From the sequence record OQ850291: 51,534 nucleotides of DNA; one strand, written 5' to 3'. Below, piece after piece: positions 1,715 to 50,718 of the stretch (positions are counted from its first letter, which is position 1; every line of letters begins with the position of its first letter). The stretch is from Escherichia phage vB_EcoS_ULIM2. Made by a program: the position numbers and the translations under genes. A model generated the notes under the pieces. That model saw only the letters and a list, made by a program, of their open reading frames with translations. It made no database searches and was not told the DNA's origin.

Positions 1715-2032
1715 ATGGCTAAATTCAATTTCGTGTTGGGCCAGCTTCCAGACTTCAAACTTCCGGTGACGTTCACCATGCCAAACGGCGAGGATGCGAC
1801 TATTATTTTTACAGTACGCCACCTTTCCAGTAAAGAAGTGCAAGATATGTATGCGAAGCAGGGCGAAATGAATGATAGCGATTTCATCACTAAGATCGCG
1901 TCAGGCTGGAATCTGGAAGAAGAATTTAACGAAGAGAATGCGCGTAAACTGGTGCAGTATTATCCTTCCGCAGCATACAATCTGACGGCAACTTACATCA
2001 AGGCGCTCGCCGGACACCGCGCAAAAAACTAA
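1715..2032 (+). CDS. Tail assembly chaperone (lambda G-like, 105 aa)
   Basis: ATG at 1715 with AGGAG RBS; located between major tail and tape measure genes; ends at TAA just after a slippery heptamer. Confidence 0.65.
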   Translation: MAKFNFVLGQLPDFKLPVTFTMPNGEDATIIFTVRHLSSKEVQDMYAKQGEMNDSDFITKIASGWNLEEEFNEENARKLVQYYPSAAYNLTATYIKALAGHRAKN

Positions 2033-2349
2033 AAAGGGCGGTTTATCTGTTATATCAGAAACCGCCGACAGAAGAGCAATTGCGATCGGTTGGCCTCAGT
2101 CTTTCTGACTATGAAGACGAGGAGCCGGAAACGATAATCGGCGATGCTGAAATGGTGAAGGCGTGGAATGTTTTTACGTCAATGCTCACTCAGTGGAGAA
2201 GTTCAGGCGCTGGAGCCTATGGTCTTGACTATAATGTTTTGCCTATGTTGTTCAAAATCTATAAAATAGAAGATGAAGAACTGGCATTGCAGGACGTTAG
2301 AATCATGGAAGCGAAAGCGCTTGAAATGATTGCTAAGCAAAACAACTAA
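1715..2349 (+). CDS. Tail assembly chaperone frameshift product (lambda GT-like), -1 shift at 2023-2029
   Basis: After a -1 slip at A_AAA_AAC the reading frame runs without stop into ORF 2080..2349; this is the conserved G/GT arrangement of tailed phages. Confidence 0.55.
2023..2066 (+). other. Programmed -1 ribosomal frameshift signal (slippery heptamer plus hairpin)
   Basis: A_AAA_AAC at 2023-2029 directly before the TAA at 2030-2032; 7-nt spacer; 8-bp stem GGCGGTTT/AAACCGCC at 2037-2044 and 2059-2066 with a 14-nt loop. Confidence 0.6.
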
Positions 2350-2370
2350 GCCGCCGTTTGGCGGTTTTTT
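2350..2370 (+). terminator. Terminator/attenuator hairpin between the chaperone genes and the tape measure gene
   Basis: CCGCC-gttt-GGCGG followed by TTTTTT, directly after the GT stop. Confidence 0.5.
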
Positions 2371-2387: not shown

Positions 2388-5261
2388 ATGGTTGATAAGG
2401 TAGCAGGTCTGTCGCTTGACGTTGATGTGTCAACAGTGCAGCGCGCAGTCAAGTCACTGAAAGAGTTTTCAAAGGCCAACGACCAGGCCGCTGATTCTAT
2501 GGGTTCTTTAATCAATGAGTCAGAGGTTGCAAAACAGAAGGCCAAAGAACACGCTGAGCAACTTAAGCGCCAGCGCAAAGAGTACGAGGCTGTAGAGAAG
2601 GCAATCGATCCTACAGTATCAAAAATGGAAAGGTTGAAGATTGCATCTCAGCAGCTTGATAAACTCTGGCAGCAGGGAGTCGTTCCAGATGAGACTTTTT
2701 TCCGTTTGGGTGAAATGCTGGATCTGCAAAACGCAAAACTTGCTCGCAGCCGGGCTATGCTTACGGAAGAAGGTCAGGCGGCATTGCAGGAAGCGAAAGC
2801 AAAAGAGCAGGCGGCAGCACGAAGCAAGGCGTTCATGGATGCCCTGAATGGTCAAGTTAACGCGATCGGCAAGACTCATGCTGAATTGATGGAACTGAAA
2901 GCGGCTGAGCTTGGTTTATCGAAAGAAGCAGCACCACTAATCGCAAAACTTAAAGATCAAGGCCGGGCTATGAATGCAGCAGGTATTAGCGCCGGGGAAT
3001 ACAGGCAAGCAATGCGAATGCTTCCTGCACAGATTACCGACGTCGTTACATCACTTGCGTCAGGCATGCCAGTTTGGATGGTTGCCATCCAGCAAGGCGG
3101 TCAAATCAAGGACTCGTTCGGCGGGATCGGTAATACGTTTAAAGTGTTGCTGAGTTATATTAATCCAGTCACAGCAGGGGTTGGCGTTCTCGTTGGCTCG
3201 TTAGGTCTTCTGGCGAAAGCTGGTTATGACTCTTACAAGTCAATAACTGATATTCAGAATGCGCTTATTGAGACTGGCGGTTATGCAGGTGTTACGGCTG
3301 AAGATCTTGATTCAGTGTCTAAAAAGATCGCGCAGACAAGCAACTCAACCATTGGGAGTATTCGCGAGATTGTAACGGAGTTGGCGAGTTCTGGTAAGTA
3401 CACCCGCGAGCAGATCCAGAACATCACTAAGGCGACGGCAGAGTGGTCGGCAGCAACTGGAAAATCAGCAAGCCAAATCATTGCTGAGTTCGACAAAATC
3501 GCAAGCGATCCGGTCAAAGGTCTGGAGAAGTTAAACGAACAATATAACTTCCTTGAAAAAGGTCAACTGACCTATATCGACACGTTAAGCCGGACGAAGG
3601 GTGAAACCGAAGCAGTATCTGAAGCAACGAAATTATTCGCCGACGTAATGGAAAAGCGAATGAAGTCGATCGCGGATAACGCCACACCCCTGGAAAAAAT
3701 GTGGAGCGATATTAAACAATGGGCTTCGGACGCGTGGGGATGGGTTGGAGATCATACACTTGGGGCACTAAACCTGATTATCGACGTTGTTCAGGGTACA
3801 GTGATTCAGGTTAAAATGATTCTTGCGAAGGGTGATGAGTACATCTCAAACTTTATCGCCTCAGCCATAAAGGCAACTCAGTCACTGCCTGGAATGAGTG
3901 ATTTCGGCGCTGATATACTGAAGGAGCAGGAGAATATTGTAAAAAGTTCTCGCGACAACTACGATCAGTTGGCTTCAGAGCTTGATGCTATTAACGCTCG
4001 CGTAGAAAAAGGCGAGATGGGATACGTTGAAGCGATGAAGCAGCGTCGCACTCTTGAAAAGCAGTATAGTGAGGAAACTAAGGAGGCAATAAGGAAAGAA
4101 GCGGAGGAGATCGAGAAGCGAAACCGAGAAAGAAATAAGCAGTCGAAAATTGTCCGCTCGCCGACAGAGCAATTCGACAAGGAGTTAATTTCACTCAAGG
4201 CTCAACTTAAGGTACTGCAGGAGCACAAGGAGATCGGGCAAAAACTTTCTGCCCAGAGAAAGGCGCTGTTTACTACTGAGGCTACGATCGCTGTTCTTCG
4301 CGAAGCTAGTTCTAAGCGTCAGTTGTCTGCGGAAGAAAAAGCGTTGCTGGCAAGTCAGGAGAGAGTTGTAGAACTTGCTAAACAGAAGGCTGAGATTGGC
4401 GATCAGATTGTCAAGCAACAGCAGTTGAACGCACTTACCGACAAGTCACTGAAGTTTGTCAATGAGATGACGGCGGCGACGGAACAGCTTAACGCTTCAC
4501 GCGGTCTTAGCACGCGAGAAATGGAGCGACAAGCGGAATTAGCTAAAATAACCACTGATTATATCAATGCTGGCGGCGGTGAAGGAGACGAAAAACTACA
4601 GAACATGATCAAGGCGCAGAATGATTACTACGCTGCGGAAGATGCCAAACGCGCTGACTGGTTGGCTGGCGCTGAAAGCGCATTCGCTGATTACGGCGAC
4701 TCTGCAATGGATATGTACGGAAACGTTAATGAGATCGCATCAAGTGCTCTAAACGGTATGACGGACATGATGGTTCAGTTCCTCACTACCGGGAAAGCAA
4801 ACTTTGCTGACTTTGCTAAAAATATCATCAGCATGATTATAAAGATGATTGCTCAAATGGTAATCTTCAATACGATCTCAGGAATGATGGGCGGTAAGAC
4901 GTGGAGCTTTGCTGGAGGGGCTTCGTCTGGTGCTTCTGCGGCATCACAGGCAACCCCTGCGCCTGCTGCTTCTGTTTTTAGATCTGTATCTTCCGGCGGG
5001 GTCGCTGTATCACTTGCTGCCGCAGCGGGTAGCGTGGCAACATCTGGATTCAACGCATCAAACTCGGCTCCAAAGGTGGTAAACCATTCAGGAGGTGGAA
5101 CGGTCGTTGACGTTAGCGGAATGGAGGTGAAAGTTGACAACGGTTCAGATCCGAGGGGGATTTCTCATGGTGTAGAAATGATGTTCAAAAAAATGATTCG
5201 TGAGTCTTGTTCGCAGGGCGGCGAGGTTTATAATTACATTCAGGAAAAAACAGGAGGTTAA
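2388..5261 (+). CDS. Tail tape measure protein (957 aa)
   Basis: Largest tail-region ORF; long coiled-coil-like E/K/Q-rich middle and Gly/Ala/Ser-rich C-terminal part; ATG at 2388 with AGGGGG RBS. Confidence 0.8.
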
Positions 5262-7806: not shown

Positions 7807-7812
7807 AATTAA

Positions 7813-7835
7813 CCCGCCTTGCGCGGGTTTTTTTT
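7813..7835 (+). terminator. Terminator hairpin before the tail tip gene (same sequence as at 5634)
   Basis: CCCGC-cttgc-GCGGG followed by 8 T; followed by TATAAT at 7842-7847 and a TAGCAC half-box at 7863-7868. Confidence 0.55.
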
Positions 7836-7883: not shown

Positions 7884-10800
7884 ATGATTCAAAAAGTGAT
7901 AAGCGGATCTAAAGGTGGGTCACAGAAGCCTCATAACCCAGTTGAGATGGAAGACAATCTAATCTCAATCAACAAAATCAAGATCCTGTTGGCTGTATCT
8001 GATGGTGAAATTGACGAAACATTCAACCTAAAGCAGTTGATGTTTAACTCAGTTCCGGTGCAAAACGAGGATGGATCGTTCAACTTCGAAGGGGTAAAGG
8101 CTGAATTCAGGCCGGGAACTCAGACGCAGGAATACATCAAGGGAATGGAAGATAGCTCTAGTGAGGTAACTGTAAATCGTGAGGTTACTACCGATAACCC
8201 ATACACGATCTCAGTAACCAACAAAACGCTGTCGGCAATCCGTATCAAGATGTTCATGCCTCGCGGCGTACGAATTGAAAGTAACGGTGATAAAAATGGC
8301 GTAAGAGTTGAGTATGAGGTGCAACAAGCTGTTGATGGCGGCTCGTTTGAGACGGTGCTCACCGATGTAATCGAAGGCAAAACAATGTCAGGTTACGATC
8401 GAAGCAGACGTGTAAACCTACCTAACTTCAACAATCAGGTGATATTCAGAGTGGTTCGGAAAACTCCAGACTCTAACGACTCGAACGTTGTTGACGCGAT
8501 TCAGGTAAAGAGCTATGCCGAGGTGATTGATGCTAAATTCCGTTATCCACTGACTGGTCTTCTTTTTGTCGAGTTTGATTCGAAGATGTTCCCAAACCAG
8601 TTACCTACGATCTCAATTCGTAAGCGCTGGAAGATTGTAAACGTTCCGTCAAACTATGATCCAGAATCACGAACTTATAACGGAAATTGGGATGGAACTT
8701 TTAAGAAGGCATGGACGAATAATCCGGCTTGGGTGCTTTATGACCTGATGATTAATCAGCGTTATGGACTGGATCAGAAAGAGCTTGGTATCGCTGTAGA
8801 CAAATGGGCGCTCTATGAGGCGGCGCAATATTGCGACCAGATGGTCCCTGACGGTAAAGGCGGCACTGAGCCTCGCTACCTTTGCGACGTGATAATTCAG
8901 TCACAGACTGATGCGTACAAGGTGATTCGAGATATTTGCTCAATCTTCCGTGGAATGAGCTTTTGGAATGGTGAAAGCATTTCGGTAATCATCGACAGGC
9001 CGCGTGAACCTGCGTACATCTTCACTAATGACAACGTGGTTAATGGTGACTTCTCCTACACGTTCGCAAGCGAAAAGAGCATGTACACGACGTGTAATGT
9101 GATGTTTGATGATGAACAGAACATGTATCAGCAGGACGTTGAGCCAGTATTCGATCGTGAGGCTACTCTACGGTTTGGTAACAACGTAACGAGCATTACA
9201 GCGATCGGTTGCACACGTCGAAGCGAGGCAAACCGACGCGGGAGGTGGATTCTGAAAACTAACCTCCGCAGCACTACGGTAAACTTCGCTACCGGACTTG
9301 AGGGCATGATCCCGACAATCGGAGATGTTGTGGCAATAGCTGATAATTTCTGGTCAAGTAACTTAACGATGAACCTGTCAGGGCGTTTGCTCGAAGTATC
9401 CGGTAGTCAGATTTTCCTGCCGTTCCGCGTTGATGCTCGCGCAGGTGACTTTATCATCTTAAATAAGCCCGATGGCAAGCCTGTGAAGCGCACAATCTCA
9501 AGTGTTAGTGCGGATGGTAAGACTATAGAGGTTAACATCGGCTTTGGCTTTCCTGTGAAGCCTAACACGGTATTTGCAATCGACCGTACCGACATTGCGT
9601 TGCAGCAGTACGTCGTGACCAAAATCGACAAGGGTGATGATGATGAGGAGTTTACCTACAAGATTACGGCGGTTGAGTACGATCCTAACAAGTATGATGA
9701 GATTGATTACGGAGTTAACATCGACGACCGACCGACGAGCATTGTTGAACCAAATCAGATACCTAGACCGGAAAATGTGCAAGTGTCCTCAGAGTCGAGA
9801 ATCGTTCAGGGGATGAGCGTAGAAACGATGATTGTTAGCTGGGATAAAGTGCCGTACGCAGTTTTCTATGACGTCCAGTGGCGAAAGGATAACGGCAACT
9901 GGCAAAATGTACCGCAGACGGCAAATAAAGAGGTATACGTTGAAGGTATTTACGCTGGCAACTATCAGGTTCGCGTTCGCTCTGTCGCTGGTTCCGGTAC
10001 GACTTCAGGATGGTCAAATATCGTAGCTGCGACGCTGACGGGTAAACAAGGTGAGCCGGGCCGACCGATTAACCTTACAGCTACGGATGATGTTGTTTTT
10101 GGTATCCGTACAAAATGGGGGTTCTCTGATGGTTCTGGAGATACGGCCTATACAGAGTTGCAACAGTCACCGGATGGAACAGTGGATAACGCAAGTTTGC
10201 TTTCTTTGATTCCGTACCCGCAGCATGAGTATTATCACTCACCGATGCCTGGAGGGAATATCGTGTGGTATCGGGTAAGGACGGTTGATAGGATCGGTAA
10301 CGTGTCTCAGTGGACTGATTTTGTCAGAGGTATGGCATCAACAAACGTTGACGATATCATTGGAGAGATTTCTGTCGATATCGAAAACTCGCCGGGTTAC
10401 GAGTGGCTTGTTGATAACGCAACCGACAACGCGGCGCAGAACGCAGCGAACGCAGAGGCAGCAATTGAGAACGCGCTAGCCAATGACAAAGACGCGATCT
10501 ACATGAAGAAGGAGAACGGAAAGCGAAAAGCTGAGTACACGAAATCACTTAAACTTATTGCTGATGAGACGCAGGCGCGAGTGACGTCGATCGAGCAATT
10601 GAAGGCAAGTTTTGGAGATCAGATTAGCGCGAGCAATAGTGAATTGCGCGAGGTTATCGCAACCGAGACTGAGGCACTATCTCGTGAGATTGACCAGCTT
10701 AAGGCTCAGATTGGAGACGATATTCAGGCAAGTTTAACAGATATCCGCAAGGCTATAGCAAACGAGACTGAGGCTAGAACGCAAGCTGATCTTACTTTGA

Positions 10801-11336
10801 GCGCAAAACTTGGGGAAAACGAGGCGGCACTTGCTCAAAAACTTGATTCGTGGAGTAATGCGAGTTCTACCGGGGCGATGTACGGCGTTAAGCTCGGGCT
10901 GAAATACAACGGGCAGGAATACAGCGCAGGAATGGCTATGTCCCTGATTGGTTCAGGCGCGGCTGTTAAGGCTCAGATTCTTTTTGAGGCTTCACGATTT
11001 GCAATCATGACCGGGATGAATGGAAGGACACAATACCCGTTTGTTGTTGAGAATGGTCAGGTTATTTTAAGTAGCGCGATCATTAAAAACGGATTCATCA
11101 CCAACGCAATGATTGGCGAGTTTATCCAGTCGAACAACTTCCAGTCCGGGAAGGAAGGGTGGAGAATCACGAAGAGCGGCGGCTCAGAGTTTAATAACGT
11201 AGTGGTAAGGGGTGAACTTTACGCAGCAGAAGGTAGGTTTGCATTCAACGGAACGGGTAACACCGTTCAGATTAACAATAACGGAATCACGGTAAACTTA
11301 CCCGGCGGCGGGAAAGTTGTAGTGGGGAGGTGGTAA
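7884..11336 (+). CDS. Tail tip / host-specificity protein (lambda J-like, 1150 aa)
   Basis: Size and position after the I-like gene; fibronectin-III-like segment; last gene of the tail block before a terminator. Confidence 0.8.
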   Translation: MIQKVISGSKGGSQKPHNPVEMEDNLISINKIKILLAVSDGEIDETFNLKQLMFNSVPVQNEDGSFNFEGVKAEFRPGTQTQEYIKGMEDSSSEVTVNREVTTDNPYTISVTNKTLSAIRIKMFMPRGVRIESNGDKNGVRVEYEVQQAVDGGSFETVLTDVIEGKTMSGYDRSRRVNLPNFNNQVIFRVVRKTPDSNDSNVVDAIQVKSYAEVIDAKFRYPLTGLLFVEFDSKMFPNQLPTISIRKRWKIVNVPSNYDPESRTYNGNWDGTFKKAWTNNPAWVLYDLMINQRYGLDQKELGIAVDKWALYEAAQYCDQMVPDGKGGTEPRYLCDVIIQSQTDAYKVIRDICSIFRGMSFWNGESISVIIDRPREPAYIFTNDNVVNGDFSYTFASEKSMYTTCNVMFDDEQNMYQQDVEPVFDREATLRFGNNVTSITAIGCTRRSEANRRGRWILKTNLRSTTVNFATGLEGMIPTIGDVVAIADNFWSSNLTMNLSGRLLEVSGSQIFLPFRVDARAGDFIILNKPDGKPVKRTISSVSADGKTIEVNIGFGFPVKPNTVFAIDRTDIALQQYVVTKIDKGDDDEEFTYKITAVEYDPNKYDEIDYGVNIDDRPTSIVEPNQIPRPENVQVSSESRIVQGMSVETMIVSWDKVPYAVFYDVQWRKDNGNWQNVPQTANKEVYVEGIYAGNYQVRVRSVAGSGTTSGWSNIVAATLTGKQGEPGRPINLTATDDVVFGIRTKWGFSDGSGDTAYTELQQSPDGTVDNASLLSLIPYPQHEYYHSPMPGGNIVWYRVRTVDRIGNVSQWTDFVRGMASTNVDDIIGEISVDIENSPGYEWLVDNATDNAAQNAANAEAAIENALANDKDAIYMKKENGKRKAEYTKSLKLIADETQARVTSIEQLKASFGDQISASNSELREVIATETEALSREIDQLKAQIGDDIQASLTDIRKAIANETEARTQADLTLSAKLGENEAALAQKLDSWSNASSTGAMYGVKLGLKYNGQEYSAGMAMSLIGSGAAVKAQILFEASRFAIMTGMNGRTQYPFVVENGQVILSSAIIKNGFITNAMIGEFIQSNNFQSGKEGWRITKSGGSEFNNVVVRGELYAAEGRFAFNGTGNTVQINNNGITVNLPGGGKVVVGRW

Positions 11337-11343
11337 AACATAA

Positions 11344-11365
11344 GGGGCCAATCGGCCCCTTTTTT
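11344..11365. terminator. Terminator between convergent J-like gene and minus-strand gene
   Basis: GGGGCC-aatc-GGCCCC followed by TTTTTT. Confidence 0.6.
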
Positions 11366-12329
11366 AATACATGTTTGGAAGAACTATCAACGGAGATTGA
11401 ATTGCTATGTTCCTGTTAGGCATCACGAATTGCTGGCGAGAGTAGTTGCCAACAACCTTATTTTTAGCAACTCTTACCTTGTTTCCAGCCATTCTGATCC
11501 CGTTCATCCTTACGTGGTTGTATCCTCCATTATTTTCAATAAGCGCTCCACAGTATGATAACTGAATCAAGCTGTTTCCTATATCCTGATCCCCTGTACC
11601 GATATTAATTACGCGATTGTAAACGAATGGTTTATTTACTGTAGAAAAAGTAACCTGACCTTGCTTGTTGGTCATGGTTATACCGTTACCGCCGCGAGGG
11701 GGAGTGTTATTGAATATTACCAAATCCATAGTAACAGAAGCCGTCACATCATCCCTTCCACCGTAGGATGCATTCCTTACTGTGATGTTTGAACCGTCAA
11801 ATCCGACGCTTACATTAGGATCATCCCATCTTGCGAATGGTATACCTCCAACTGGCAATCTCATGTTACCATTAACAGTTATTCGATTTGAATATTGGCA
11901 CGTCATTAATTTTGCCACGTTTGATATGGCGGTGAAATCAGTTGAGTTTGCAACAAGCAGACCCTCATTCCTTGTGCCTACTGGTAATATCTCCATGACA
12001 GTACCAGCCCATTGCGGTAAACCTTCGTAGGCGCTTAGTGCATCATCACCTCTGATTATCACTCCGTTGTTACCATTCCTTGACACTGTAGTAACATAAA
12101 ACGGATCTGGTATGACAAGTGTCTGGTCGAACACCTCAATAACGTCAACAGGCTTTGTGAAGACAACAACAACCTGAGATCCCGGAGTCAATGGAGTATT
12201 TATAGTCAACGTCTTATTTGATTGCGCCCTCTGGTTGAAGTTCGCGCAGAATGAAGGGGCGCGAAGACCAGCCGTGATTTGCATCGCAGGACGCCCGTCA
12301 TTGTAATTTACATATATTCCCTCCCCCAT
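11364..12329 (-). CDS. Hypothetical protein, possibly tail-associated/host-range (321 aa)
   Basis: ATG at 12329 with AAGGAG RBS formed by the last codons of the upstream lipoprotein gene; Gly/Asn-rich repetitive sequence. Function not established. Confidence 0.45.
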   Translation of the reverse strand: MGEGIYVNYNDGRPAMQITAGLRAPSFCANFNQRAQSNKTLTINTPLTPGSQVVVVFTKPVDVIEVFDQTLVIPDPFYVTTVSRNGNNGVIIRGDDALSAYEGLPQWAGTVMEILPVGTRNEGLLVANSTDFTAISNVAKLMTCQYSNRITVNGNMRLPVGGIPFARWDDPNVSVGFDGSNITVRNASYGGRDDVTASVTMDLVIFNNTPPRGGNGITMTNKQGQVTFSTVNKPFVYNRVINIGTGDQDIGNSLIQLSYCGALIENNGGYNHVRMNGIRMAGNKVRVAKNKVVGNYSRQQFVMPNRNIAIQSPLIVLPNMY

Positions 12330-12331
12330 AA

Positions 12332-12562
12332 TTACCACTCCTTAGTTTTAACTGACACCTTACCGCTAAAGTTTCCCTGGTTGTCGTCTGATGAAAGACC
12401 TTTGAATCGCATGTCAATCTCGCCAGACGGAATCTTATTGCCATCAACGAATCGCATCATGCAAGATCCGTAAGCGTAAGTAACGCAGTCTCCATTTTTA
12501 AGATTCTGGGCGCAACCAGTCAGGATGAATGCAGCAGCAATAATGGTGATTAACTTTTTCAT
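12332..12562 (-). CDS. cor: Small outer-membrane lipoprotein, Cor-like superinfection exclusion candidate (76 aa)
   Basis: Signal peptide with lipobox LTGC; placement next to tail genes as for Cor in T1-like and lambdoid phages; identity by analogy only. Confidence 0.45.
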   Translation of the reverse strand: MKKLITIIAAAFILTGCAQNLKNGDCVTYAYGSCMMRFVDGNKIPSGEIDMRFKGLSSDDNQGNFSGKVSVKTKEW

Positions 12563-18835: not shown

Positions 18836-19288
18836 TTAACTAAAAATGCTATTGGTCGTTCCGATATCTTCCTTCTTCACAACCCGCATGAATTTCTTGT
18901 TCTTGCATCGCTTCTCAAGGCACTTGCCGTTACCATCAAACTTGAGGTCGAATCTCAGCCATGCTGCGCGGTATCCTTTACACCCCTGTCGGCGGTAAGC
19001 GCGATGCGCAGCCTCAGCACCTTGCCACGAAATCATGTTGCGTTCTTTCCAGCCTTGCACCGTCTGATTTGTTACTTTTAGTGCCTTTGCGCATGCCGCA
19101 GGGCCACCATAATATTCGATAAGCGCATCAAGTCGTGCTCGCAATCCAGCGCGTGTTTCTTCTTTATGAATATAGAATCCGCAGCGCTGTCGTGGCTTTT
19201 TGTCTTTACCGCGTCGAGTTCCGTTGTTACCATTGATGTGACGTTTATCGATTTCACCAGTTGACTCCGCGATGCGTTGAATACTCAT
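18836..19288 (-). CDS. Putative DNA-binding protein with Cro/YdaS-like helix-turn-helix (150 aa)
   Basis: AKALKVTNQTVQGWKERN resembles Cro/YdaS-type HTH; basic termini; a palindromic box lies in its leader. Confidence 0.45.
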   Translation of the reverse strand: MSIQRIAESTGEIDKRHINGNNGTRRGKDKKPRQRCGFYIHKEETRAGLRARLDALIEYYGGPAACAKALKVTNQTVQGWKERNMISWQGAEAAHRAYRRQGCKGYRAAWLRFDLKFDGNGKCLEKRCKNKKFMRVVKKEDIGTTNSIFS

Positions 19289-19301
19289 CTTGATTCTCCT
19301 A

Positions 19302-19344
19302 TAGCACTTTTTGCTAAAAACGTTTACTGTATGCCGTGTATTAT
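19302..19344 (+). promoter_or_regulatory. Box-type promoter for the helicase operon
   Basis: TAGCAC (19302-19307), TTGCTA (19311-19316), 22-bp spacer, TATTAT (19339-19344), enclosed by inverted repeat CGTTTAC/GTAAACG. Confidence 0.5.
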
Positions 19345-19368
19345 AGCGTAAACGCTACAATGATTCAA
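19340..19368 (-). promoter_or_regulatory. Sigma70-type promoter for the HTH gene, face-to-face with the helicase promoter
   Basis: Minus strand TTGAAT (19363-19368), 17-bp spacer, TATAAT (19340-19345); the -10 overlaps the plus-strand -10 by 5 bp. Confidence 0.5.
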
Positions 19369-19381
19369 AGGATTAATAGCC

Positions 19382-21400
19382 GTGACAATGAACATTAAAA
19401 AACAGATCGCATTACTTGGCGAGGACTACATAAAGCGAACTCAGGAGCGATTCACTGTCGGTGAGGTTGTTCCGTATCCGTATCAGGTTGTTGCTTACGC
19501 TGAGATCGCAAAACGCCTATCAAATTACGAGCATCCATTCTTTGTTAAAGCGTCAGTGTCTGCGGGTAAGACCATCATTTTTGCTATGGTTGCAAAGCAG
19601 TGTCAAAAAATGGGATTGAAAATGCTTGTGCTGGCACGTCAGGGTGAGATTGTCGATCAGGATAGCGAAGAGATCGACAACTTCGGGGTAACTAACTCCA
19701 TCTTCTCGGCGTCACTTGGAATAAAATCTTGCTACTTCCCGATCGTTGTCGGCTCTGAGGGTACTGTTGCAAATGGCTTAAACAATGAGTTGGCTGATTT
19801 TGTCCCGCACGTAATCGGAATCGATGAATGTCATCAGGTAGATTGGGAAGACCTTGCGCAAGCCATCGAAGGCAAGGAAACGATGGAACAGATGAGGGGC
19901 GAGAAAGGGAAAATTATCATGGACGGGGAGATTCCTCTGATTGGTAATGATGGAAAGCCTCTTCTTGGAACAAAGCGAAGCCAGTACACGATCGTAATCA
20001 TGGAGATGATGCGTCGATGTAAAGAGGTTCACGGGCATGACCTCAGAATATTTGGAATGACGGGATCTGAATTTAGGGGAGTTGTTCCAATCCTGGTTGA
20101 AAATCCAAAAGCATTGGGATTCTGGCGTGAGCGCGTAACTGATATCGACACAAACTATCTGATTGAGTTCGGCTCTGTTGTGCCGACGATATTCGGTTCA
20201 ACTGACGGCGTACACTACGATCTGGATAAGTTCAAGGCATCAAGCGAGGACGGCGTACAGGACTTTACAGAGAAAGATATGAAGGCAATGGAAGATGAGA
20301 TCCTTCATGATAAATCTCTTACTCAGCGAATCATGCAAATGGTCGCCAAAAAGGCTGAAGAACGTAACGCGGTTCTGATTACATGCGCTGGGGTGCGTCA
20401 CTGTAAAGAGGCGGCGGCGGCACTACCTCCAGGAAGCACCTATGCAATAATCACTGGCGACACAGACAACAAATCGCGCAAGAAGATTCTTGACGATGTA
20501 AGGGCCGGAAAAATTAAATACACCTTTCAGGTAATGGCGCTCACTACTGGTGTTAACGTTCCAAATTGGGATTTCAGTGTCATACTCCGCAAAATAGGGT
20601 CGCTCACACTGTTGATTCAACTTTTGGGTAGGGGTATGCGTCTGCTTAAATCCTGGCAGGTTGCTGAGGGAATGGTTAAGCAGGACCATCTTGTATGGGA
20701 TTTTGCAGGTACGATGGATGAGCTGGGTCAGCTTTATTTCGATCCGATACTTGAGCAGGCGCAATTCCAGAAGCGTTTTGAAAACGGCAAAGATCCGAAA
20801 ACATGTCCGAAATGCGGTTGCGTAAATAGCTTCTATGCTCGACGATGCGTTAATGTCATTGATGGTGAGCGTTGCGATCACTTCTGGACTTCTCAGATTT
20901 GCGAGGACCAGGTTGATGAGCGTACAGGAAAAATCCTTGTTAAAGGGTGTGGTGCAGAGAATGATGTTGTGGCACGAGTCTGTCGTTGCTGTGATGTTTC
21001 TCTTGTCGATCCTAACCTGAAGTTATCCGGTAAGGCGTACACTAAGAATGACTGGTATGAAGTAAAGAATTTTGAAGTTACTCTAACGAAGAACCAGAAA
21101 GGCATAATATACAAATACACGCTGATTAACGACGAAGGTGATGAGTTTAAGGCGTATGAAAAATTCTTCCCTGAGTCCGACTCTAAGATTTGCGGTACAC
21201 TATGGAAAACGAAAGGCGTACTTCCTCATGTGTCAGATCCTAAAATGCGTCGCTACTTTATCGGAATGAAGAATGCCATCAAGATCGTGCAGTACGCACA
21301 TCATATTGCTCACCCGGTGCGCGTAACTCATCGTCGCAACCAGAAGAAAGAGGATATTATCTCACGCAAAGATTTCGGCATGGAGGATATACCGCAATGA
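19382..21400 (+). CDS. SF2 (DEAH-type) DNA helicase with C-terminal Cys-rich zinc-binding region (672 aa)
   Basis: Motif I SVSAGKT, motif II GIDECH, motif III TGS, motif VI QLLGRGMR; several CxxC pairs near the C-terminus. Confidence 0.7.
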   Translation: MTMNIKKQIALLGEDYIKRTQERFTVGEVVPYPYQVVAYAEIAKRLSNYEHPFFVKASVSAGKTIIFAMVAKQCQKMGLKMLVLARQGEIVDQDSEEIDNFGVTNSIFSASLGIKSCYFPIVVGSEGTVANGLNNELADFVPHVIGIDECHQVDWEDLAQAIEGKETMEQMRGEKGKIIMDGEIPLIGNDGKPLLGTKRSQYTIVIMEMMRRCKEVHGHDLRIFGMTGSEFRGVVPILVENPKALGFWRERVTDIDTNYLIEFGSVVPTIFGSTDGVHYDLDKFKASSEDGVQDFTEKDMKAMEDEILHDKSLTQRIMQMVAKKAEERNAVLITCAGVRHCKEAAAALPPGSTYAIITGDTDNKSRKKILDDVRAGKIKYTFQVMALTTGVNVPNWDFSVILRKIGSLTLLIQLLGRGMRLLKSWQVAEGMVKQDHLVWDFAGTMDELGQLYFDPILEQAQFQKRFENGKDPKTCPKCGCVNSFYARRCVNVIDGERCDHFWTSQICEDQVDERTGKILVKGCGAENDVVARVCRCCDVSLVDPNLKLSGKAYTKNDWYEVKNFEVTLTKNQKGIIYKYTLINDEGDEFKAYEKFFPESDSKICGTLWKTKGVLPHVSDPKMRRYFIGMKNAIKIVQYAHHIAHPVRVTHRRNQKKEDIISRKDFGMEDIPQ

Positions 21401-42079: not shown

Positions 42080-42088
42080 TAAATACTA

Positions 42089-42109
42089 ACCCGCTTCGGC
42101 GGGTTTTTT
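42089..42109 (+). terminator. Rho-independent terminator before the packaging module
   Basis: CCCGC-ttcg-GCGGG followed by 7 T. Confidence 0.6.
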
Positions 42110-44295: not shown

Positions 44296-44312
44296 TAAAT
44301 GAGATATAATTA

Positions 44313-44337
44313 GGGCTGTCAATTGACGGCCCTTTTT
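44313..44337 (+). terminator. Terminator/attenuator between terminase and portal genes
   Basis: GGCTGTCAA/TTGACGGCC palindromic stem followed by TTTTT. Confidence 0.5.
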
Positions 44338-48470: not shown

Positions 48471-48485
48471 TTAGCATTTAATATA

Positions 48486-48515
48486 AGGACTATCCTTTTG
48501 GATAGTCCTTTTTTT
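48486..48515 (+). terminator. Strong rho-independent terminator between the two paralogs
   Basis: Perfect 10-bp stem AGGACTATCC/GGATAGTCCT followed by 7 T. Confidence 0.7.
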
Positions 48516-49333: not shown

Positions 49334-49341
49334 TTATTGAA

Positions 49342-49367
49342 GCCGTGAACATAATCACGGCTTTTTT
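49342..49367 (+). terminator. Rho-independent terminator before the major capsid gene
   Basis: GCCGTGA-acataa-TCACGGC followed by TTTTTT. Confidence 0.6.
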
Positions 49368-49388: not shown

Positions 49389-50348
49389 ATGACTACTAAA
49401 AAATTTGATGAAGCAGATAAAAGCAATGTTGAAATGTATCTGATCCAGGCTGGCGTAAAACAGGATGCAGCCGCAACGATGGGTATTTGGACCGCTCAGG
49501 AACTACACCGCATCAAAAGCCAGTCCTATGAAGAAGACTACCCGGTCGGCTCCGCTCTACGCGTATTCCCGGTTACAACCGATCTTTCTCCGACTGATAA
49601 GACGTTTGAATACATGACCTTTGATAAGGTTGGTACTGCGCAGATTATCGCGGACTACACTGACGACCTGCCGCTTGTTGATGCCCTGGGTACTTCTGAG
49701 TTCGGTAAAGTGTTCCGCCTGGGTAACGCGTACCTGATTTCAATTGACGAAATCAAAGCAGGTCAGGCAACTGGTCGTCCGCTGTCAACTCGTAAGGCAA
49801 GCGCATGTCAGTTAGCACACGACCAACTGGTTAACCGCCTGGTGTTCAAAGGTTCAGCGCCGCACAAGATCGTGTCCGTGTTCAATCATCCGAACATCAC
49901 CAAAATTACCTCCGGTAAGTGGATGGATGGCGCAACTCAGAAACCGGAAACGGCTGAAGCTGAATTGACTCAAGCGATCGAAACCATCGAGACGATTACT
50001 CGGGGCCAACACCGAGCAACCAACATCCTGATTCCGCCTTCCATGCGTAAGGTTTTGGCGATTCGTATGCCTGAGACTACTATGTCTTATCTGGACTATT
50101 TCAAGTCTCAGAACTCCGGTATCGAAATCGACTCTATCGCAGAGCTTGAGGATATCGACGGCGCAGGCACTAAAGGTGTGCTGGTGTACGAAAAGAATCC
50201 GATGAACATGTCCATCGAGATCCCGGAAGCATTTAACATGCTGCCAGCGCAGCCGAAAGACTTGCACTTTAAAGTGCCTTGCACCTCTAAATGTACTGGT
50301 CTTACAATTTATCGCCCGATGACTATTGTCTTAATCACTGGCGTGTAA
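49389..50348 (+). CDS. Major capsid protein (319 aa)
   Basis: Position in the head module, flanked by terminators on both sides, GGAG RBS; size typical of HK97-fold capsid proteins. Confidence 0.6.
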   Translation: MTTKKFDEADKSNVEMYLIQAGVKQDAAATMGIWTAQELHRIKSQSYEEDYPVGSALRVFPVTTDLSPTDKTFEYMTFDKVGTAQIIADYTDDLPLVDALGTSEFGKVFRLGNAYLISIDEIKAGQATGRPLSTRKASACQLAHDQLVNRLVFKGSAPHKIVSVFNHPNITKITSGKWMDGATQKPETAEAELTQAIETIETITRGQHRATNILIPPSMRKVLAIRMPETTMSYLDYFKSQNSGIEIDSIAELEDIDGAGTKGVLVYEKNPMNMSIEIPEAFNMLPAQPKDLHFKVPCTSKCTGLTIYRPMTIVLITGV

Positions 50349-50354
50349 TATTAT

Positions 50355-50383
50355 AGGGGCTAACTTAGTTAGTCCCTTTTTTT
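50355..50383 (+). terminator. Rho-independent terminator after the major capsid gene
   Basis: 10-bp stem AGGGGCTAAC/GTTAGTCCCT followed by 7 T. Confidence 0.7.
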
Positions 50384-50689: not shown

Positions 50690-50695
50690 TCAACA

Positions 50696-50718
50696 AGGCG
50701 CTTAATGCGCCTTTTTTT
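50696..50718 (+). terminator. Rho-independent terminator
   Basis: AGGCGC-ttaat-GCGCCT followed by 7 T. Confidence 0.65.

Follow-up and report, generated by a model that had tools for sequence, protein, structure and literature searches.

A probable programmed -1 frameshift and a putative leaky terminator between the tail chaperone and tape measure genes of a T1-like coliphage

The G/GT tail chaperone locus of phage lambda reportedly owes the description of its programmed -1 frameshift to Levin, Hendrix and Casjens in 1993 and to Xu, Hendrix and Duda in 2004, 2013 and 2014. To our knowledge, lambda needs no 3' structure for the slip and carries no terminator between T and H. In Escherichia coli dnaX, a stem-loop a few nucleotides downstream of the slip site acts as a stimulator, together with an upstream Shine-Dalgarno-like stimulator. 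Lambda encodes its chaperone between the tube and tape measure genes, slips at a low level near the end of the reading frame at a G:GT ratio of 30:1, and never makes T alone, an arrangement that the locus described here resembles (PMC5009743). The heptamer of dnaX is likewise A-rich, A_AAA_AAG there and A_AAA_AAC here, and the latter is much less shift-prone than the former in E. coli (PMC5009743). The insertion sequence IS1 carries the identical A_AAA_AAC in insAB', where a low-level -1 frameshift is proven in E. coli and synonymous variability around the site is reduced, but there the product is a transposase, not a phage tail chaperone, and IS1 has no established stimulator (PMC4066793). 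Hairpins with U-tracts between co-directional structural genes, at which partial read-through grades mRNA dosage, are a feature of phiX174 (TJ, TF, TG and TH) and of the late clusters of SPP1, whose stem-loop terminators delimit late gene clusters. The efficiencies of the phiX174 terminators have been measured, and they block only 20-40% of transcription (10.1101/2020.03.05.979765); no such measurement was found for T1-like phages.

Phage T1 provides the direct orthologue (CPTT1_038/039 and the terminator at 19508-19527; AY216660 / NC_005833), with the same heptamer, stop, hairpin and terminator. Only point differences separate the two loci, namely a single base immediately 3' to the frameshift hairpin and two fewer G in the tape measure ribosome binding site. 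AY216660 annotates CPTT1_039 as 'tape measure chaperone, frameshift product'; this CDS at 18872-19506 is joined from two pieces, and its length agrees with a 211-aa product. In the same record, the feature 'terminator, rho-independent' at 19508-19527 is the exact homologue of positions 2350-2370 of the present sequence. In NC_005833 this terminator is annotated as well, along with a second one behind the tail tube gene. Additionally, a genome announcement for a T1-like Klebsiella phage notes a G/GT-like frameshift (PMC6763657). Because the frameshift product and the terminator are already annotated in T1, the finding itself is an ordinary one. Many deposited T1-like genomes in GenBank nevertheless split the pair, entering G and T as independent reading frames labelled 'hypothetical protein' or 'tail length tape measure protein'. 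A literature search found no published detection of the T1 GT fusion and no mapped T1 3' ends, and a search for transcriptomics of Drexlerviridae or T1-like phages gave nothing relevant.

The window, that is, the whole stretch of 51,534 nucleotides that was analysed, derives from Escherichia phage vB_EcoS_ULIM2 (OQ850291). Its open reading frame map is that of a complete, circularly permuted genome of ~51.5 kb in which the structural operon crosses the ends of the genome as written, running off the end of the window and on at its start. The phage is a T1-like coliphage (Tunavirus, Drexlerviridae); the stretch 1600-2500 shares 97-99% identity with many T1-like phages of Escherichia and Shigella and 96.9% with T1 itself. 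The region opens with the major tail tube protein gene (933-1601, + strand; PF08813 Phage_tail_3, E 9.6e-71), annotated as the major tail protein in T1. A terminator-like hairpin of 7 pairs, 6 of them G-C, follows its 3' end (1613-1630, +; -14.5 kcal/mol), and the homologue of this hairpin is the second terminator of NC_005833. The spacer that separates it from the G start (1631-1714) consists of 84 nt of AT-rich, untranslated DNA and contains no sigma-70-like promoter at a 9/12 threshold. The G-like tail assembly (tape measure) chaperone gene (1715-2032, +, TAA included) encodes 105 aa and matches PF08748 Phage_TAC_4 (E 2.6e-37; 128 bits against a cutoff of 21.1), in agreement with T1 CPTT1_038, a 'tape measure chaperone'. 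It is overlapped by the T-like -1 frame extension (2029-2349, +), which comprises 106 codons and a TAA and corresponds to CPTT1_039; PF08809 DUF1799 is matched on the fusion (E 1.3e-11). The tape measure protein gene begins at ATG 2388 (2388-5261, +; PF06791 TMP_2, E 6.4e-74; PF09718 Tape_meas_lam_C, E 3.4e-26; T1 CPTT1_040) behind a ribosome binding site read as AGGGGG (2378-2383, +), the homologue of which is annotated as a ribosome_binding_site in T1. By its Pfam matches, this tape measure gene is of the lambda type; the next gene encodes an M-like minor tail protein. Two overlapping reading frames thus lie between the tail tube and tape measure genes, as G/GT-type chaperones require. While the gene order is that of lambda, the Pfam families PF08748 and PF08809 are others than those of lambda G/GT, the heptamer is A_AAA_AAC as opposed to G_GGA_AAG, and a stop codon and a hairpin follow it closely. 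An Rfam search of the whole window matched no family.

Taken as a whole, a -1 frameshift on A_AAA_AAC that yields a GT fusion, combined with a leaky intrinsic terminator before the tape measure gene, is the account that we consider likely. On this account, most ribosomes translating 1715-2032 would stop at the TAA and release the 105-aa G-like chaperone. A minority would move back by one base on the heptamer at 2023-2029, where the tRNAs for Lys and Asn would pair anew with AAA_AAA; these ribosomes would then decode CTA at 2029 and go on to 2349. The resulting 211-aa GT-like fusion would be made at a low and fixed ratio, as lambda does with G and GT. The heptamer is intrinsically weak in E. 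coli, and its slip rate would probably be raised by the stop that adjoins it and, in this lineage, by the stem-loop that begins 7 nt further on. The hairpin and U-tract at 2348-2370, which come straight after the T stop, would act as a leaky intrinsic terminator for the host RNA polymerase, and the hairpin may also serve as a 3' stabiliser of the upstream mRNA. As a result, the tape measure and distal tail genes would have a smaller transcript dosage than the tube and chaperone genes.

The slip site is found in the phase and position expected of a ribosomal signal. The last zero-frame codons of the 105-codon G frame are GC_A AAA AAC, so that the heptamer (2023-2029, +) stands in X_XXY_YYZ phase with G and directly adjoins the TAA (2030-2032, +), a candidate 'shifty stop'. 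In the -1 frame, which is open from 1948, the part that starts with CTA at 2029 adds 106 further codons to give the 211-aa fusion and ends at TAA 2347-2349. A sequence-only reading of this DNA had placed the heptamer immediately before the G stop, had described the -1 frame as open through 2349 and had interpreted the pair as a G/GT frameshift; the coordinates, the phase and the open frame are confirmed, and the interpretation is well supported by the PF08748/PF08809 matches, the gene order and the family-wide conservation of the slip site. The heptamer by itself does not go beyond chance: AAAAAAC is present 27 times in the window against 16 +/- 4.3 expected, and AAAAAACTAA once against 0.32 expected. 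Its significance therefore comes from phase, position and conservation, and the occurrence count contributes none.

Conservation was assessed in 115 related loci from IMG/VR, which reduce to 75 distinct sequences with G identity down to ~31%. Two loci (L035 and L037) and their duplicates (L095 and L101) were left out as probable assembly errors, given the scattered indels in G; the indels of all four fall in the G region 2001-2420, and the slip site of L037 has A5 instead of A6. For L035 and L037, these indels are probably homopolymer sequencing errors rather than biology. A scan of bacterial genome contigs confirmed no prophage relatives. An in-phase slip site in some form is present in all 75 distinct loci. 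Specifically, 57 carry A_AAA_AAC with an abutting stop (54 TAA, 2 TGA and 1 TAG), while 12 belonging to a GC-rich clade carry G_GGA_AAC and TAG in the same phase. The four-base slip motif A_AAG is found in a further five (GCA_AAG_GTC TAA), and the four-base A_AAA in one (GCA_AAA_GCC TAA). The stop adjoins the slip motif in 70 of the 75, as TAA, TGA or TAG and across two different heptamers. This conserved position could simply reflect the need to end G there. The codon preceding the heptamer is Ala GCA or Val GTA, with Thr ACA in one locus, and its wobble A is always kept.

Two groups of relatives differ from the window at the slip site. The distant GC-rich clade (L103-L115; e.g. L105:2790-3150), with G only ~32% identical, has G_GGA_AAC followed at once by TAG. 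Genomes of ~47 kb (L076-L080; e.g. L076:2800-2860) possess only the A_AAG slip within GCA_AAG_GTC TAA, with the stop one codon later; they have no downstream hairpin and retain a CCTCC/GGAGG terminator after T. Unlike dnaX, the phage slip site lacks a conserved upstream Shine-Dalgarno sequence, and a dnaX-like stimulator of this type is ruled out, with the Gly codon ~13 nt upstream using all four codons.

Downstream of the stop, a spacer of 7 nt (2030-2036), within the 5-9 nt range of 3' stimulators, leads to a stem-loop at 2037-2066 (+). The structure folds at -16.1 kcal/mol (z = -4.27; a stability reached by 1 of 200 shuffles), and its minimum-energy form contains 7 + 4 pairs interrupted by a 2-nt bulge. 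The position of this hairpin, 7 nt after the heptamer, had been read correctly from the sequence, while the plain 8-bp stem proposed for it gives way to the bulged fold. Across relatives, 88.7% of the cells of the structure are paired, versus 34-54% in slid controls. Moreover, the minor-codon frequency at fourfold and sixfold degenerate sites is 0.23 inside the stem-loop versus 0.46 outside it in G and T (permutation p ~0.006), in a test of 55 sequences unselected for the stem motif.

It is possible, though doubtful, that the frameshift is real and this stem-loop idle, a by-product of the peptide KRAVYLxYQKPP and codon preference, with the heptamer, with or without the stop, sufficing as in lambda. 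None of the 12 pairs shows a compensatory change in the alignment of relatives, as an idle structure would have it; among 44 distinct variants, 13 have the heptamer and stop but no stable structure, L027-type and Rtp-type phages being examples of lineages without the hairpin, and IS1 uses the same heptamer with no established stimulator. Against this stand the folding z-score and the reduced synonymous variation within the stem, and the next Pro codon, just outside, takes all four codons. Different stable hairpins also occupy the same position in two distant clades, at -18.5 kcal/mol in the GC-rich clade and -14.2 kcal/mol in L117. Since 13 of the 44 variants keep the slip site without it, the stem-loop is not required for the slip, and we regard the element at 2037-2066 as probably an optional, replaceable frameshift stimulator. 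A stimulatory role fits the site because, as noted above, A_AAA_AAC is much weaker in E. coli than A_AAA_AAG (PMC5009743). The reading of the hairpin as a stimulator is plausible, with partial support: the structure is stable and synonymously constrained, but it shows no covariation and is missing in several lineages.

The 5' arm of the stem-loop (2037-2044) consists of the octamer GGCGGTTT, which recurs as the 3' arm of the terminator hairpin (2360-2367). Long-range pairing or antitermination between the two structures is ruled out: elsewhere the terminator arm is GGCGCTTT or GGAGGTT while the stem-loop stays GGCGG/CCGCC. The shared octamer is probably a coincidence, because it is not conserved in other lineages.

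The intrinsic-terminator-type element (2348-2370, +) overlaps the T stop codon and reads AAGCCGCC GTTT GGCGGTTT followed by a U-tract. Its hairpin (2348-2367) comprises 8 pairs, 5 of them G-C, closed by the loop GTTT, with T6 at 2365-2370 (-12.6 kcal/mol, z = -2.9). It begins inside the T stop codon, ends 17 nt before the tape measure ATG and is co-directional with the flanking genes. Of 48 distinct variants, 39 have a hairpin with a U-tract after T, and in nearly all of them it starts at a distance of 1-5 nt from the T stop, counted from the first base of the codon. Every Drexlerviridae-like lineage sampled is represented among the 39. The single exception is L011, in which a missing G weakens the terminator stem. 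At least four stem cores are used (CCGCC/GGCGG, GCGCC/GGCGC, CCTCC/GGAGG and GCGCTC/GGGCGC). Among seven representative variants, 98.2% of cells are paired, as against 25-73% in slid controls, two pairs show compensatory changes, and the covariation score is reached by 3 of 500 shuffles. The wide presence, the different stem cores and the compensatory changes together make a real intrinsic terminator a fitting interpretation. In the distant GC-rich clade the post-T terminator is absent, and in most loci there a small reading frame (MRKILI...) follows T instead of the tape measure gene.

No promoter is predicted between the terminator and the tape measure gene, where only 17 nt are available. 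Because these 17 nt offer no predicted promoter, and because the element lies in the path of transcription to the tape measure gene and to the M, L, K, I and J-like genes, the terminator would have to be leaky. From its sequence and position, the most sensible reading of 2348-2370, and its likeliest role, is attenuation of transcription into the tape measure gene. In our assessment, termination efficiency is not reliably computable from folding energy, which also failed to predict it in phiX174 (10.1101/2020.03.05.979765).

We think it rather unlikely that the main role of the hairpin is to stabilise an mRNA 3' end, or to block processing, and so to protect the tube and chaperone mRNA, or that it is fully read through by phage antitermination. 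About ten such sites occupy one co-directional late operon whose downstream genes must still be expressed, and the hairpin is a modest one in both energy and G-C pairs, which suits such a role; the canonical U-tract that follows the stem in every lineage would, on the other hand, be needless for a hairpin of pure stability. The stabilising and terminating roles are compatible, because a partial terminator creates a protected 3' end.

Attenuation at 2348-2370 would be one step in a series. Hairpin and U-tract sites, about ten in number and all on the + strand, are placed between late-operon genes at 42088-42105, 44312-44333, 48485-48510, 49339-49364, 50355-50377 and 50695-50713 and, beyond the ends of the genome as written, at 1613-1630, 2348-2367, 7811-7829 and 11342-11361. 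They adjoin, for example, the 3' ends of the tail tube gene and of ORF 49389-50348, which is presumably a capsid gene. The first 12 kb of the window contain 22 terminator-like sites, compared with 10.7 +/- 2.9 expected, and T1-like genomes have been reported to carry 18-21 predicted rho-independent terminators each (PMC4070988). Since all downstream late genes must be transcribed through these sites, partial termination or antitermination is implied. The site at 11342-11361 is a symmetric hairpin between an A-run and a T-run that scores as a terminator on both strands, and it sits between the convergent J-like gene (7884-11336, +) and ORF 11364-12338 (-). As for the sequence-only reading, the hairpin and T6 that it noticed between the GT stop and the tape measure start are present at 2348-2370 and form a conserved, covarying element of terminator type. 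Its description of this arrangement as unusual does not stand: the terminator is annotated in both T1 records, occurs in all Drexlerviridae-like lineages sampled and is one of the roughly ten late-operon sites.

A fused product could also arise if RNA polymerase added an A within the A6 run, so that the mRNA reads ...AKK-LKR... in one frame; this is very improbable, and the six-A run that would favour it is short for efficient transcriptional slippage. Fusions of this origin are known in IS elements and phages (PMC5009743), but the relatives with G_GGA_AAC or the four-base A_AAG offer no long homopolymer at the same phased position, and both the strict X_XXY_YYZ phasing and the adjoining stop are typical of a ribosomal signal. 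The occurrence of G_GGA_AAC in the GC-rich clade favours tandem tRNA slippage over a homopolymer effect.

Translation of the -1 frame also agrees with the way in which the T frame evolves. The period-3 pattern of synonymous variation starts at the slip site, where the variable columns become the third positions of the -1 frame, and the peptide LKRAVYLxYQKPP is conserved in that frame right after it. Of 55 sequences, 53 have CTA and the remaining 2 have CTG as the -1 frame Leu codon overlapping the stop, while other conserved Leu positions employ 3-6 codon types. In the same 55 sequences, the downstream T frame has no conserved start codon of its own: at TTG 2080 (T codon 18), TTG is found in 23, TTA in 20, CTT in 10 and CTA in 2, amounting to replacement in 32 of 55. 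The G product matches PHROG 569 and 17368, the latter spanning both the G and T halves as a single profile. Scarcely credible is the view, reflected in several GenBank records that follow older annotation in showing a separate reading frame, that T is translated without a frameshift from an internal start at TTG 2080 or ATG 2182, for TTG 2080 is unconserved as a start and lacks a properly spaced Shine-Dalgarno sequence, the 17 to 51 codons upstream of the candidate starts show -1 frame coding conservation from the slip site onward, and both PHROG 17368 and the curated T1 record treat G and T as one product. The phased slip site, the restriction to CTA and CTG, the variation at -1 frame third positions and the unconserved TTG together indicate that ribosomes translate the -1 frame beginning at the slip site and that selection acts on the signal. 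From these patterns, we infer that T would be made solely within the 211-aa GT fusion, as its C-terminal portion.

At the family level, the observations are mildly new in three respects, namely the near-invariant adjacency of the stop, the dispensable and replaceable 3' hairpin, and the covarying terminator stem. There appears to be no earlier description of a phage G/GT signal in which an abutting stop is both obligatory and conserved. More tentatively, the signal of the PF08748 family may be a three-part cassette of heptamer, obligatory abutting stop and a hairpin gained or lost to tune the G:GT ratio, accompanied by covarying leaky terminators that would set a dosage of tube > chaperone > tape measure; this we advance as a conjecture that may well prove wrong. 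The comparative evidence supports annotation as a joined frameshift CDS across Drexlerviridae, and correct annotation is the main use of the finding, which matters little beyond it. With a near-invariant stop and a dispensable hairpin, the relatives would provide a natural series for separating the contributions of stop and structure at a heptamer that is weak in E. coli. Late transcription in this phage is poorly characterised, and the covarying terminator series would supply a testable model of how tail protein stoichiometry might be controlled at the transcript level.
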